From IMG/VR virus record IMGVR_UViG_3300037787_000006, positions 1 to 32,340 of that record: a DNA stretch of 32,340 nucleotides, one strand, 5' to 3'. The notes beneath the pieces were generated by a model. That model saw nothing but the letters and a program-made list of their open reading frames with translations. It made no database searches and had not been told where the DNA came from. The stretch comes from a virus. Its lineage: Duplodnaviria; Caudoviricetes. Made by a program: the position numbers and the translations under genes. Positions 9,094 to 17,485 of the stretch are shown here, in pieces (position 1 is the stretch's first letter; the number at the start of each line of letters is the position of its first letter).

Positions 9094-9548
9094 ATTGTCG
9101 TATCAATGTTTGGCACTTGAACGGTAAATGATAGCATCCAGCCGCTTAGTAAGTTCTTAAACCTTCCTGTAAATGGTAGTGCTGTTGGCGCGTTTATAAC
9201 CTGATAGTTACTTGCAAATAAGTTGCCGCGCATGAGGTGCTGCGTGAGAATGTTTGCTTCATTCAACATCGCATTCATTATGTCTTGGTGGTTGTTGTTG
9301 CCGTAAAATGGCGTGCCCTCTTTTTTGTTGTCGGTATTGATGTCTACCAAGTCGGCAAACAGAATGTTTATGTCAAACTCAATGGTCTGCATGCCCATTC
9401 GGGCTTCCTCAATTAAAATATGTGCTAAGGGATAGATGCCTTGTTTGTCAAGGTCTACGTCAGCCATATCGCCAAGTTTAACTATGTTAATCTGTTGGCT
9501 GTCTAGCTGGTTTTTTAGGGCTGTGGTGATTTTGTAATAAGCTCGCAT
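9087..9548 (-). CDS. putative tail terminator
   Basis: 153 aa; YPLAHI and LSGW motifs; first gene after a putative late promoter. Confidence 0.55.
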   Translation of the reverse strand: MRAYYKITTALKNQLDSQQINIVKLGDMADVDLDKQGIYPLAHILIEEARMGMQTIEFDINILFADLVDINTDNKKEGTPFYGNNNHQDIMNAMLNEANILTQHLMRGNLFASNYQVINAPTALPFTGRFKNLLSGWMLSFTVQVPNIDTTIC

Positions 9549-9554
9549 ACTGTG

Positions 9555-9578
9555 AAAACGTAATGCGGGCTTTTTGTG
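9555..9578 (-). promoter_or_regulatory. putative late (phage sigma) promoter
   Basis: CACA-N14-CGTTTT-N6-ATG(9548). Confidence 0.55.
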
Positions 9579-10738
9579 CTAAAGGACATAATACGCGGGG
9601 GCTTTTTTGTTACCTAAGCGTTTCATGCTGATATATCTCAGCGCGTCTATGCCGTGATTAAAGGCGTCAATAGGTTTGTTGGTTTTTGCGCCTGTTTTGT
9701 CTGTTTCCCATGTGTATGATCTCAGCTCTTTAATGATATTCAAACTTCGCTGTGTTACGTTCAGGGTGTACTCCTGCAAGATAGCTATACCCGCGTTAAC
9801 GCTGTCTTTGCCTTTGTCGGCTGGGTGTACGTTCAACCCTGCACGCCTTAGCTCCGCTATGCTTTTTGGCTCTGCGCTATCTGCTATAATGTACTTGTTC
9901 TTCAGTAGCCGCGCAATGTCGTTGTTAAGTAGCCCTGTTTGATAGACTACTTCATCAATATAAACCTGCCCATCGTGCCGGTACAAATCAACGGCGGCTG
10001 TTGGGTCGTTGGTAAATCCAAAGTCCAAGCCAGTGCCTAAATATTCAGCACCATCAGGTACCTGTGAAACTTGCCGCCAGTTCTCAAAAACAACACCCTG
10101 CAAACTACCTATCTCCCCAAGTCCGTACACCTGCCACCAGTTGCGCCAGTAGTCGGAGCGTTGCGCCTTTTCTTTGGCGGCTTCTATCTCCGCGCGTATG
10201 GATGGCTCCAGGGCTTCGTTGTCTAAATAGGTGAGCTTTACAAAGTCTGTTTTATCGTTGCCTATTAGCTCGGTGTGTGCCCAAAATTCGCTGGTTGGGT
10301 TGTAGTCTAAATAGATAAACTTTTTTGTCCTGATGGCTAGTTGCTGGTAGGCTTCAAAGGCTACATTGTTGGCTTCGTTGATAAACAGAACATCACGCCT
10401 TGCACCGCGTAGCTTGTCGGGTTGATCTACACTAAAAAATTCAATGTAGCTGCCATTTGTGAAGGTGTATGTTAGGCTGCTTTTGTTAAAGCGTGTATCA
10501 TCCCAATTTTCAGTCCAAAGCATTATCTTTTGAAAGTCGCGCAATGCACCGCGCCTAAGATGTGGTATGCTTTCTGCAACAATGCTAATTTCTGAGGCTT
10601 TGTTTTGAATAGCATATTGGATAAGTATCGGAATGATACTAAACGTTTTTGACGCGCTGGTCAGGTGCCGCCCTGAATGACGCGATGTCTACGTCTCAGG
10701 GCGGCTATCTTTTTTTGTGCTGTTGTTTTTTTAAGCAT
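9579..10738 (-). CDS. terL: terminase large subunit (PBSX-like), interrupted at Walker A by a 5-nt insertion; 384 aa if rejoined
   Basis: ATG 10738 gives MLKKTTAQKKIAALRRRHRVIQGGT-stop. A second frame from 10661 gives TSASKTFSIIPILIQYA...RRGALRDF..., then LRGARRDVLFINEAN (Walker B), DYNP, GLDFG and NHGIDALRY (nuclease). Confidence 0.9.
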
Positions 10739-10871
10739 CTCTCCAAGTGGTATAACATACGGCTAGCCGCTGTTGTTTGTTAGGGTATTCGCTCTGCATG
10801 GTTTCATCTTCCATGCAGCGGCTCATAAAATCATTTTGACTTTCTCCTTCTTTTGCTTTTGGTAGGGGCAT
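10731..10871 (-). CDS. small conserved-type phage protein (46 aa)
   Basis: Manual: MPLPKAKEGESQNDFMSRCMEDETMQSEYPNKQQRLAVCYTTWRDA; its end overlaps the terL start. Confidence 0.75.
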   Translation of the reverse strand: MPLPKAKEGESQNDFMSRCMEDETMQSEYPNKQQRLAVCYTTWRDA

Positions 10872-11232
10872 CGTGATAAGTGTTTACAAGTTGTTGCAAT
10901 TCTTCTGCCAATGTGCGTACACATGGCGCGCAGCTAGTGGCCTTCTTTTTAGTGTTAAAAACGCGGTTGTATATCTGCAAAAGTTGCCGTTGCTGGTCGC
11001 TGGTAATGAATGGGCTTTTGTCTGCAAAGAATTTGCTCAGGTAGATATACTCTTTTTCTGTGAGGCATTGCGTGCCGCGATAAGGGAATAGCTCATTCAG
11101 CTTCTTGCGCCTTTCATTGCATCCGCAGTCTTCACCTGCCAGCCATTTAACGGCTTTGTCTATTCCTGTGGCTTTTGTGGCTTTGGCTATTGTGTCGCCA
11201 ACTCCAACGCTTTTTTTATTCGTTGTTTGCAT
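10831..11232 (-). CDS. Cys-rich hypothetical protein (possible Zn binding)
   Basis: 133 aa; GVGDTIAK...GEDCGCNERR and CAPC motifs. Confidence 0.7.
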   Translation of the reverse strand: MQTTNKKSVGVGDTIAKATKATGIDKAVKWLAGEDCGCNERRKKLNELFPYRGTQCLTEKEYIYLSKFFADKSPFITSDQQRQLLQIYNRVFNTKKKATSCAPCVRTLAEELQQLVNTYHDAPTKSKRRRKSK

Positions 11233-11687
11233 CGTTTAATAGTGTTAAATATCGTAGCTACGCTTATACCGGTGTCTTCGGCTAGCGTTCTCATGCTTAC
11301 TTCTTGGTCGTATTTTCGGCTCAGGTTAAAATACAAATCTAGCAGTTTTGCATCAAACCAATGAAAACGCGCTAAGGTGATGTGTATTGCTTCAATTTGC
11401 CTATCTGTAAAGGTTTGCTCATGTATTAGCATTTCGGCTAATTGTAGGCCGTCTAAATCGGTGTGCGGCTTGTTCTTGCGGCTGTGGTCGAGCGCGGTGT
11501 TGCGTACTATAAAAAAAAACAAGCCCTCAGTTATTGGCTTGTTCTTATTATTGGTGCTCCATTCTATAAGCTTTATGTAGCTATCTTGAACCACGTCTTC
11601 CGCCATATCTTGCGCGCCATATTTAAGCGCAACCGTTACCCATGAAGCGTGCTTTTTGTGTAGCTGTATGATCTCATTCTGGCACAT
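11187..11687 (-). CDS. sigma70/ECF-like RNA polymerase sigma factor
   Basis: 166 aa; region-2-like AEDVVQDSYIKL...VRNTALDHSRK and region-4 HTH SMRTLAEDTGISVATIFNTI. Confidence 0.8.
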   Translation of the reverse strand: MCQNEIIQLHKKHASWVTVALKYGAQDMAEDVVQDSYIKLIEWSTNNKNKPITEGLFFFIVRNTALDHSRKNKPHTDLDGLQLAEMLIHEQTFTDRQIEAIHITLARFHWFDAKLLDLYFNLSRKYDQEVSMRTLAEDTGISVATIFNTIKRCKQRIKKALELATQ

Positions 11688-11982
11688 CTAAATCAATCGG
11701 GGTGAAGATTGGCGTTTCGCTTTTGATGTTCGCGTTTACTTGTTGGGTTGCCTTACCGAAGGCACGGTCAAGAAGCACCTCAGCGGCACGCACATCGCCT
11801 TTAACGGCTTTTGCCCTGAGTGCTTTTAACACGGCTTCTAGTGCCTGCATTCCGTCTTTCTCATCTGCTAGCACCTTTGCCATTGCTTCGCGTATATCAG
11901 GCAGCTTTGGGCGGCCTTTGCGGTTGATGTTCTGCGGGCGTTTGTCAAAGCCCTTGCCAATTATGTTTTCGGGTTTAGGCAT
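11674..11982 (-). CDS. terS: terminase small subunit
   Basis: 102 aa; NRKGRPK, KAVKGDVRAA, LDRAFGK motifs (DUF5681-like); upstream of terL. Confidence 0.7.
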   Translation of the reverse strand: MPKPENIIGKGFDKRPQNINRKGRPKLPDIREAMAKVLADEKDGMQALEAVLKALRAKAVKGDVRAAEVLLDRAFGKATQQVNANIKSETPIFTPIDLDVPE

Positions 11983-13093
11983 AATCTTTACCGTTGCGTT
12001 TTATCTTTAAATCAGGGTCAAGCTTACGCATTCTGTCAATAATCACTTGGCAGTACTTGGGGTCTAATTCCATGCCGTAGCACTTGCGGTTGAGTTGGTG
12101 TGCGGCTACCATTGTGGAGCCTGAGCCTAAAAAAGTGTCTAAAATTAAATTAACTTTTCCTGCCCATTCAATACAAAAACGCATAACTTCTAAAGGTTTT
12201 TGTGTTGGGTGTACGCTGCCTTGTAACGCTGCTCTGTTTACTGTAACCGACCTTAATGGCTTATCTTCTGATGTCCAAGCCAGCTCTCCATCGCTCATTG
12301 TTAAACCGTCTTGTCCTTTGCTCCAATATATCCACCCTCTTTTTGCTGGCAATAAATCGGCAAAATAATTACCACCCCATATTATAGCAACATTAGTAAA
12401 AGAAAGTATTAAATCAAAGGTGTTTTTTTCGGGTCTTTCATTATCCCAACCTCTAAACTCATGGGCTTTTCTATTGTGTTTTGGGTTTTTAGCAATGCTT
12501 TCTTTTTGTCCATCAATGCCTAACCCATACGGTGGGTCGGTTAGTAATAGGTTTGCCTTCTCACCATTCATCAACTTTGCCACAGCATCACTATCCGTAC
12601 TATCCCCACAAAGCAACCTATGCTCACCAATCTCAAACAAATCGCCAAGCACAATATCCGTCTGAACCTCATCAGGCATTTCATAGTCATCCTCCGCAGC
12701 TTCTAACACCTCAGGCTCTTCAAAACCCGGAACATCCAAACCCCATGCCTCCAACTGCTCAACATCCCAATCAGCCTGCAATTCATCCCACGCCCACTCA
12801 CCAAAGCCAACGTTATCTTTAATCAAAAACTCCGCTTTCTGTTCCTCAGTCCAATCGTCTGCAAGTACCACAGGCAGCTCTTTAAGTCCAAGCTCTTTAG
12901 CTGCTTTTAAGCGCATATTACCACCAAGTACAACCACTTTGCCGTCTTTATCGGTAAAGCATACCAGCGGCCTTTTATTAAGCATATCCGGGAAGTCCTG
13001 AATGCTCTGCTTAAGCTTCTCAAACTTCTCATCCCGAATAACGCGAGGGTTCTTCGGGTTGGGTTTGATCTGTGTTATGGGTAATATCTGCAT
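11975..13093 (-). CDS. ParB-N domain / N6-N4 DNA methyltransferase fusion
   Basis: 372 aa; NPKNPR and GGNMRLKA (ParB-like), HRLLCGDS, TDPPY, HPTQKP, DTFLGSGST. Confidence 0.9.
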   Translation of the reverse strand: MQILPITQIKPNPKNPRVIRDEKFEKLKQSIQDFPDMLNKRPLVCFTDKDGKVVVLGGNMRLKAAKELGLKELPVVLADDWTEEQKAEFLIKDNVGFGEWAWDELQADWDVEQLEAWGLDVPGFEEPEVLEAAEDDYEMPDEVQTDIVLGDLFEIGEHRLLCGDSTDSDAVAKLMNGEKANLLLTDPPYGLGIDGQKESIAKNPKHNRKAHEFRGWDNERPEKNTFDLILSFTNVAIIWGGNYFADLLPAKRGWIYWSKGQDGLTMSDGELAWTSEDKPLRSVTVNRAALQGSVHPTQKPLEVMRFCIEWAGKVNLILDTFLGSGSTMVAAHQLNRKCYGMELDPKYCQVIIDRMRKLDPDLKIKRNGKDYA

Positions 13094-14092: not shown

Positions 14093-14120
14093 CAAATATA
14101 AAACAAAATATTAATACAAA
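14093..14120 (-). promoter_or_regulatory. Bacteroidota housekeeping-type early promoter
   Basis: TTTG...TTTTGTTTTATATTTG; TAnnTTTG at 14093-14100. Confidence 0.7.
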
Positions 14121-16435: not shown

Positions 16436-17485
16436 TTAAAATAGTGTGTTTTGCTGTTCAGCGTAAAACCTATTCTCAGCTTCTTTTAAGTTGAGCAAAG
16501 CTTGCTTGTAATAGCTATCTTTTAGCTCAATGCCTATGCCCTTACGGCCTAAACTTACAGGGCTGTAAACCTCAGAGCCAACGCCCATAAAAGGCGATAA
16601 AACTACTTCGTTTGGGTTAGAATACAAAACCACTAAACGGTCAATCACGTCAAGCTGCAAGGCGTGAACGTGCTTTTCGTCATCCTCTTCTTTGCTATCT
16701 TTAAAAGGCAATACATTTTCATTTCGTATGTCATCCCAAACACTAGAAGCGTAACGCCTCCACATTATATGACTAGCCTTGTTTTCTTTGTGATCTCCTC
16801 TAAAGTCCTTGTATTTTGCTAAAATATTAGCCCATACTTTATCGTAGTCATCTAAGTCAGTGCCTATTGCATCCAGCTTAACTGGCATACCTTTTAAGCT
16901 TCGATACGTTTCAGGTGCTATCGGGTTAGCTCCAAAATAAGGGTAAACATTTAAGCCGTGCTCATGCGTTACTGGCACCTTGTTTTCACCTGCTTTTTTA
17001 AACACTAAAATGTAGTCAGGTTGAGCTGTAAAACATTCGGTGCTATCTTCAACTATTAGCTTATGCATTAACGAACGCACCATAGTTCTAAGCCTTACCT
17101 TTAGTGGTTCCTTCCAAACTGTAATACGGTTGCAAAAGTGAAAACCATATTTTTCATGAAGTCTAATAATCTCATGTGGAAAGTCCCAAAGAAAATTTTT
17201 AGTAACATTAGTTAACACATCCTGACAATGTACTGCCGTAAGCCTTCCTGGCTTTGTGATGCGTGCAATTTCTTTTATTAAAAATTCATATTGCACTAAA
17301 AAATCTTCTTTGGTTTCGCAGTTGCTCATGTCGTGAATGTCGCTGCTATATTCGTATAGCCCTGCAAAAGGTGGCGAATAAACGCTAAAGTCAATACTAT
17401 TGCTTTTTAGTGCAGACGTTACCTCAACGCAATCACCATTGTAAACGCTGTATTTCTCCGTGTGTAGTTGGTTCTTAACTTTCAT
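16436..17485 (-). CDS. N4/N6 DNA methyltransferase
   Basis: 349 aa; YNGDC, SPPF, KHVHALQLDVI, SPFMGVGSE, GIELK. Confidence 0.9.
   Translation of the reverse strand: MKVKNQLHTEKYSVYNGDCVEVTSALKSNSIDFSVYSPPFAGLYEYSSDIHDMSNCETKEDFLVQYEFLIKEIARITKPGRLTAVHCQDVLTNVTKNFLWDFPHEIIRLHEKYGFHFCNRITVWKEPLKVRLRTMVRSLMHKLIVEDSTECFTAQPDYILVFKKAGENKVPVTHEHGLNVYPYFGANPIAPETYRSLKGMPVKLDAIGTDLDDYDKVWANILAKYKDFRGDHKENKASHIMWRRYASSVWDDIRNENVLPFKDSKEEDDEKHVHALQLDVIDRLVVLYSNPNEVVLSPFMGVGSEVYSPVSLGRKGIGIELKDSYYKQALLNLKEAENRFYAEQQNTLF

Follow-up and report, generated by a model that had tools for sequence, protein, structure and literature searches.

How can a phage make its large terminase when a stop codon interrupts its only terL gene within the Walker A motif? 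The question is raised by the window, i.e. the whole stretch of DNA that was analysed, which is one record of 32,340 nt with 127-nt terminal repeats and is rated complete. A search of the whole window genome found no second terL. The gene starts with an ATG at 10738 on the minus strand; an earlier note on this DNA had described it as broken in Walker A by ACC-TGA and as encoding 384 aa once 5 nt are skipped, and we reproduced these coordinates. The features of the locus are listed below, with counts that refer to the eight broken alleles described in the next section.

10731..10871, minus strand: 46-aa ORF, the stop of which overlaps the terL start by 8 nt
10664..10738, minus strand: terL ORF1 (25 codons), which closes within Walker A after its first half, QGGT; N-terminus as in 80/80 contiguous homologues
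10673..10733, minus strand: tract with dense differences to the intact relatives at strain level, likely swapped in one piece
10705-10667, minus strand: hairpin, all of it coding sequence (codons 12-24), ending one base short of the take-off codon; predicted driver
10661..10676, minus strand: small alternative hairpin spanning the take-off codon, of doubtful role
10664..10666, minus strand: candidate take-off codon ACC (Thr25); Thr in 8/8 alleles
10661..10663, minus strand: stop TGA right after the take-off codon, one base shared with the landing codon
10659..10663, minus strand: 5-nt coding gap, missing in intact homologues and in strain-level relatives from runs X5 and X11
10659..10661, minus strand: candidate landing codon ACC, opening the frame of the remaining terL; ACN in 7/8 alleles, GCT in 1
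9579..10658, minus strand: terL ORF2, 359 aa, with the rest of Walker A, the Walker B region and an RNase H-like nuclease domain; open to its stop

The downstream part is a TerL with Terminase_3/6N and Terminase_3C domains, and an intact TerL homologue matches PDB 2wbn. The frame of ORF2 is closed upstream and has no start of its own, in agreement with the earlier note: a TAG lies 10 codons earlier and no ATG, GTG or TTG precedes the motif (a single CTG immediately precedes the second ACC). The overlap between the 46-aa ORF and terL possibly allows translational coupling. The window genome contains no tRNA genes and hence no suppressor tRNA of the phage's own. A 9-kb Logan contig from run X1 (depth 14.5) is identical to the window over 9400-11900 without a gap in the match, which, as X1 is possibly the source sample, rules out an assembler slip only.

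The host of the window phage is likely a member of the Bacteroidota, since the closest cultured terL genes are from Flavobacterium phages (51.5%) and since a TATATTTG motif, which we take to resemble the Bacteroidota -7 promoter element, recurs five times. A TTTTATATTTG motif followed by an AT-rich tract precedes the ORF starts at 14093, 21050, 23351, 24306 and 32120 (minus strand), and these sites look like Bacteroidota-type promoters. The window also encodes a sigma-like protein (Sigma70_r2; 11187-11687) just upstream of the packaging region and two N6/N4 DNA methyltransferases (11975-13093 and 16436-17485), one of which is fused to a ParB-like domain.

Broken terL alleles and the hairpin that precedes the break

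The 80 best relatives in IMG/VR (62-67% identity) are all contiguous at Walker A, so that a ranking by similarity alone misses the broken class. Two pattern scans that tolerated inserts of any length between 1 and 30 nt behind the Thr codon, and that did not demand a stop, yielded 14 matches. Five of these were terL genes broken at the Thr codon, each with a stop as the next codon, and the same five were recovered by a stop-specific scan; the other nine (seven unrelated sequences and two intact distant terL genes) were discarded. A metagenome scan yielded six matches, namely two new alleles and four repeats of two known ones. The broken alleles are rare in IMG/VR, with five against an estimated 370 or so intact stretches matching a control pattern. 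A family-blind 5-nt pattern run over IMG/VR returned nothing new (four known alleles), two scans of GTDB genomes returned no prophage allele of a broken terL, and blastn of two cassettes (hairpin plus gap) against cultured phages gave chance matches only, so that no cultured phage with the cassette was found. The terL of the Flavobacterium phage FpV9 is intact.

In total, eight distinct broken alleles were obtained, including that of the window, with TerL bodies that are 55-84% identical; some of the alleles are related. All eight are broken at the same Walker A codon. The gap is 5 nt in seven of them, with the junctions ACC-TG-ACC (window), ACG-TA-ACT, ACG-TG-ACT, ACG-TG-ACG (two alleles), ACT-TA-GCT and ACG-TA-ACA, and in the remaining one it is 6 nt and in frame (ACG-TAA-ACA). 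A stop directly follows the take-off codon in every case (TGA in four, TAA in three and TAG in one), and the landing codon keeps AC in seven of the eight alleles while its third base takes all four letters. The earlier note had pointed to matched take-off and landing codons; these are present in the window, but the match is exact in just three of the eight alleles, and one landing codon (GCT) is not a Thr codon. The ACG take-off codons are paired with ACG, ACA or ACT as landing codons, and the two take-off codons that end in a pyrimidine are paired with landing codons that do so too. Small as these numbers are, the landing codons appear compatible with wobble reading by the take-off tRNA, and the GCT codon could pair with tRNA-Thr through a G.U pair.

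Downstream of the gap the frame is open and contains the Walker B-region and nuclease motifs in all eight alleles (one is ended by the end of its contig). In six of nine pairs dN/dS was 0.05-0.10 (the other three were saturated), where values against intact sisters include time spent as an intact gene; between the broken alleles L083 and L085 it was 0.067. An alternative genetic code was considered and rejected, as it would not account for three different stops together with a change of frame.

The strong hairpin that the earlier note had placed next to the take-off codon folds as described (10705-10667). The stretch 10738-10655 reaches -28.8 kcal/mol (z = -5.0), and none of 200 shuffles was as stable. 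Over the 45 nt up to the take-off codon the eight broken alleles range from -19.8 to -28.9 kcal/mol, against -5.6 +/- 3.4 for the same 45 nt in 134 distinct intact alleles (best -16.5), and the two ranges do not overlap. In each broken allele no other 45-nt window of the gene is as stable as the hairpin, and of 2000 synonymous recodings only 0-2 were as stable (0 for the window). When the eight alleles are aligned, 93.8% of the cells pair and 3 of the 12 pairs change on both sides. The covariation score, which is partly tied to amino-acid choice and to the relatedness of the alleles, exceeded those of all 500 shuffles and of all six slid controls; weaker count measures were matched more often, the number of pairs changing on both sides by 33 and that of further pair types by 98 of 500 shuffles. 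The stem also alters the protein, as can be seen from codon 13, which encodes Ala, Thr or Ser in all eight broken alleles and Lys or Arg in 99 of the 134 intact ones.

A scan for the signature of the stem returned nine matches, five of them broken loci and four of them copies of one intact allele. This intact allele, found at the terL start of L133, L227 and L230-L232, folds in the same register but less stably (-16.5 kcal/mol) and uses unusual Ser and Tyr codons; it is possibly a revertant or a precursor.

Other signals were less distinctive. The competing UCAGG/CCUGA hairpin mentioned in the earlier note does exist (-7.2 kcal/mol), and a hairpin of 4-5 bp occurs in the same register in seven of the eight alleles. 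Its energies (-3.1 to -7.2) are barely beyond those of the intact controls (mean -3.0 +/- 1.7), and it contains the stop, as the take-off stem-loop of gene 60 does, in the window allele only. No 3' structure signal was found in the broken alleles. The nascent peptide, called very basic in the same note, is basic, but unspecifically so, this being a trait of the family: by charge, the sole property compared, no nascent-peptide signal was seen (+4 to +8 in the broken alleles against 6.4 +/- 1.0 in 143 intact ones). In the 5-nt alleles the GGNGG of the two Gly codons has its 3' end 6 nt ahead of the landing codon, the spacing of the mini Shine-Dalgarno sequence of gene 60, but the protein forces it; Bacteroidia ribosomes reportedly do not read SD sequences (PMC10798248).

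A probable programmed stop-hop, its alternatives and its known counterparts

We consider it probable, on comparative sequence evidence, that the 5-nt gap is skipped by a programmed ribosomal stop-hop that would yield full-length terminase. This reading, the core of the earlier note, gains strong comparative support from the eight alleles that are broken at one codon, with a stop next to it, a Thr-type codon 5-6 nt further on and a covarying hairpin missing from intact alleles; it is also supported by the sole terL of a complete genome being broken in Walker A. The ribosome would pause with peptidyl-tRNA-Thr on codon 25 and the stop in the A site, after which the peptidyl-tRNA would let go of its codon. 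The 3' arm of the hairpin, still within the ribosome, would zip as the mRNA exits and pull the message forward, and the tRNA would re-pair 5 nt (or 6 nt) downstream, with decoding restarting at Ser. The modelled folding gain for an advance of 5-6 nt is negative in all eight alleles, with a size that depends on shielding (-4.9 to -12.7 kcal/mol with 9 nt shielded and -0.2 to -4.2 with 15). The hairpin likely pushes the hop, in a mechanism that follows the driver model for gene 60.

Several other explanations of the junctions have to be weighed. A -1 frameshift in the 5-nt alleles, or readthrough of the stop in the 6-nt allele, would give a terminase with two extra P-loop residues, and it is true that either route adds exactly two residues, that the second of these is Thr in seven of the eight alleles and that no stop closes the -1 frame within the gap. 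However, the junction lacks a common slippery sequence, the length of the loop is identical in 73 of 73 distinct intact contexts (a set that was partly selected for that), in-frame sense inserts were absent (0/14) from the scans open to 1-30 nt, and one conserved hairpin would have to serve two different mechanisms, all of which makes this explanation unlikely. Slightly less likely still is removal of the gap before translation, through a skip by RNA polymerase, through cutting and rejoining of the RNA or through a slippage deletion at the Thr codons that affects some of the DNA molecules. RNA polymerase can be moved forward by a strong nascent hairpin, intact sisters exist and one intact allele keeps a weaker hairpin. 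The constraints on the junction are nevertheless of the decoding type (an in-frame stop and synonymous Thr codons) and not those expected if a repeat in DNA or RNA were at work; the repeated sequence is only 2-3 nt long and imperfect in five of the eight alleles, and the intact sisters differ across the whole hairpin instead of by a clean deletion. Splicing is not known to have a route for the removal of 5 nt.

Translation might also stop and then restart on an overlapping start codon, so that TerL would assemble from two chains, a peptide of 25 aa and the remainder of the protein. The stop is overlapped by GTG in three of the eight alleles and by CTG in the window, but four of the eight have no start-like codon there and the next in-frame start lies 21-46 codons further on; the cut, moreover, would fall within the phosphate-binding loop and the hairpin would be left unexplained. 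We regard such a restart as very improbable, and the same low credence goes to the view that the broken terL genes are dead and belong to phages that are defective or depend on a helper. The rarity of the broken form in IMG/VR and the failure to find a cultured phage with the cassette would fit dead alleles, whereas the restriction of the damage to one codon in eight alleles, the intact downstream frame, the low dN/dS between two broken alleles, the selected hairpin and the complete genome without a second terL do not. Hardly credible, finally, are the two alternatives put forward in the earlier note, namely that the window genome was misassembled at this site or underwent an isolated fold-back (quasi-palindrome) mutation. 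The insert is the reverse complement of the nearby TCAGG and the sole run with the allele is possibly the source sample, yet a separate X1 contig is identical and both alternatives fail on the seven other alleles, which carry different inserts at the same codon.

Only a handful of established cases of natural bypassing are known. The terL stop-hop, as far as it can be judged from the alleles, would work like the bypassing of T4 gene 60 or of phage Hau3 and yet is neither. According to two preprints, T4 gene 60 has a 50-nt bypass (20 nt in the shortest homologue) that is linked to a MobA HNH cassette (10.1101/2022.08.31.505936; 10.1101/2024.12.09.627546), and in the driver model pairing of the mRNA on leaving the ribosome drives the forward movement (10.1101/2024.12.09.627546). 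Gene 60 and terL have in common a stop right after the take-off codon, a cognate landing codon and a 5' hairpin proposed as the driver. The terL alleles also share with the MobA cassette an HNH gene that overlaps the start of the recoded ORF (here in L095 and L097), near-identical genomes with and without the element, a gap that stays after loss of the nuclease in some of them, and a replaced tract that ends at or just after the landing codon. They differ in that the terL gap lies in a terminase Walker A motif, while that of gene 60 lies in a topoisomerase large subunit with CTE/NTE tails, in the length of the gap (5-6 nt against 50), in the stop that overlaps the landing codon in terL and in the use of Thr instead of Gly. 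Moreover, terL has no hairpin within the gap, its 5' hairpin abuts the take-off codon whereas that of gene 60 lies 9 nt upstream, no specific nascent-peptide signal was found, and the HNH gene is of the NUMOD4/HNH_3 type and, unlike MobA, does not split the gene.

The bypass in the terminase of the Streptomyces phage Hau3 has the support of reporter assays and mass spectrometry (PMC10732093). As described there, it similarly combines short gaps (7-10 nt) in an essential large terminase gene with a 5' stem-loop proposed as a stimulator, but it is triggered by a hungry UUA codon tied to host development, whereas true stops are found in all eight alleles here; the terminase family and the host group also differ, and the link with HNH genes is seen here only. 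Stop-hops in E. coli are known from synthetic constructs, and a review of 2016 knew of no natural in-frame stop hop (PMC5009743). Matched codons flank the stop in those constructs as in terL, and L092/L098 likewise spends exactly nine in-frame bases on a single amino acid; the terL case differs in being natural, in an essential gene and with a selected hairpin. By its junction L092 is a candidate natural in-frame stop hop. The byps of Magnusiomyces mitochondria have a hairpin within the insert. These byps resemble the terL gaps in being short inserts bypassed after an unreadable codon, and differ in their location in an organelle and in involving an unused sense codon (PMC5009743). Our literature search, which covered mostly open-access sources, found no report of a Walker A stop-hop in a terminase.

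Probable exchange between terL genes and association with HNH genes

We think it rather more probable than its opposite that the hairpin and the gap together are the cargo of a free-standing HNH homing-nuclease cassette. Such a cassette would destroy the target of the nuclease in conserved Walker A DNA, would move between terL genes by recombination and would persist after loss of the nuclease, as in the window genome. In a tree with 47 rows, made up of the eight broken alleles and of 39 intact ones that stand for 115 after clustering at 90%, the label changes eight times between broken and intact, at least six of these changes being forced. L092 has an intact sister at 98.6% and L085 one at 95.1%. 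Between L098 and the intact L116, 18 of 45 bases differ before the gap, against 0-5 per 45 downstream; after the gap 5 of the first 15 bases differ and later differences are rare. As the upstream DNA of this pair differs too, it shows a breakpoint and not a swap of the cassette only.

Strain-level relatives of the window were found in contigs of runs X5 and X11, in which the site is spanned, the 5 nt are missing and the stem is erased. In the X5 contig 24 of the 44 differences lie within the 61 nt of 10673-10733 and at most 20 in the other ~316 nt, with both flanks similar. Of the eight runs examined, X11 is the sole RNA run and carries the intact allele, so that RNA of a broken allele was not among them. 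Runs X2-X4 (uncovered at 10576-10743), X8 (uncovered at 10674-10715) and X24 (uncovered everywhere) were not counted as evidence. Over 75 nt, the 5' module of each broken allele is nearest to that of another broken one (8/8). With the hairpin left aside, the first 30 nt are closest to other broken alleles in four of the eight cases and tie with intact ones in the other four, so that convergence is also conceivable.

HNH genes (NUMOD4/HNH_3) overlap the start of terL in L095 and L097, the terL bodies of which are only 58% alike, and they end at the same offset to the terL start as the 46-aa ORF of the window. An HNH gene adjoins terL in two of the six broken loci with 700 nt of flank and in none of 115 intact loci (p = 0.002); when any HNH gene within 1.25 kb is counted, the numbers are two of six and two of 115 (further upstream in the latter; p = 0.012). 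The window genome itself contains no HNH gene, and none was found beside five of the seven other alleles, two of which have a short flank. Among 80 relatives of the L097 HNH gene that were examined, only the query locus belongs to this family of broken terL genes.

The broadest interpretation, for and against which we see the case as evenly balanced, is that terL contains the smallest natural programmed bypass, a 5-nt stop-hop with a stop that shares a base with the landing codon and with a hairpin in the 13 preceding codons as the sole driver. The 6-nt allele would then be the first natural in-frame stop hop, the module would spread with an HNH nuclease and outlast it, and the output of TerL would be gated by competition with the release factor. 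The 85-nt cassette comes in eight natural variants, which differ in the stop (three kinds), in the gap (two lengths), in the landing (matched or wobble) and in compensatory changes of the stem. Lacking the long gap and the peptide signals of gene 60, it is a minimal system in which to ask whether pairing of the exiting mRNA drives forward movement. A homing nuclease may in this way change invariant active-site DNA without a change in the protein, a route besides introns and inteins. In practice, such terL genes get annotated as N-terminally truncated or dead. Avs2 is described as sensing terminase. A function of the stop-hop in limiting TerL or in the evasion of such sensors, as put forward in the earlier note, is conceivable, whereas the link with a homing nuclease has some direct support.

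Some further loci with HNH genes near terL were noted. By eye, the terL genes of L095-L097, the HNH-linked lineage, are flanked by glycosyltransferase-like and acetyltransferase-like ORFs. In L277 and L282 (2000-2640) an HNH gene lies just before the terL Walker A in an apparent group I intron, which we presume to be such from motifs judged by eye. Among the relatives of the L097 HNH gene, L294 (1925-2082) has a terL of another family that abuts the HNH gene and of which the Walker A motif is split by a 41-nt gap. This gap consists of CGC, TGA, a hairpin and CGA (CGC and CGA being Arg codons), and a second hairpin ends just before the take-off codon, which makes L294 a long-gap case with the same 5' architecture.
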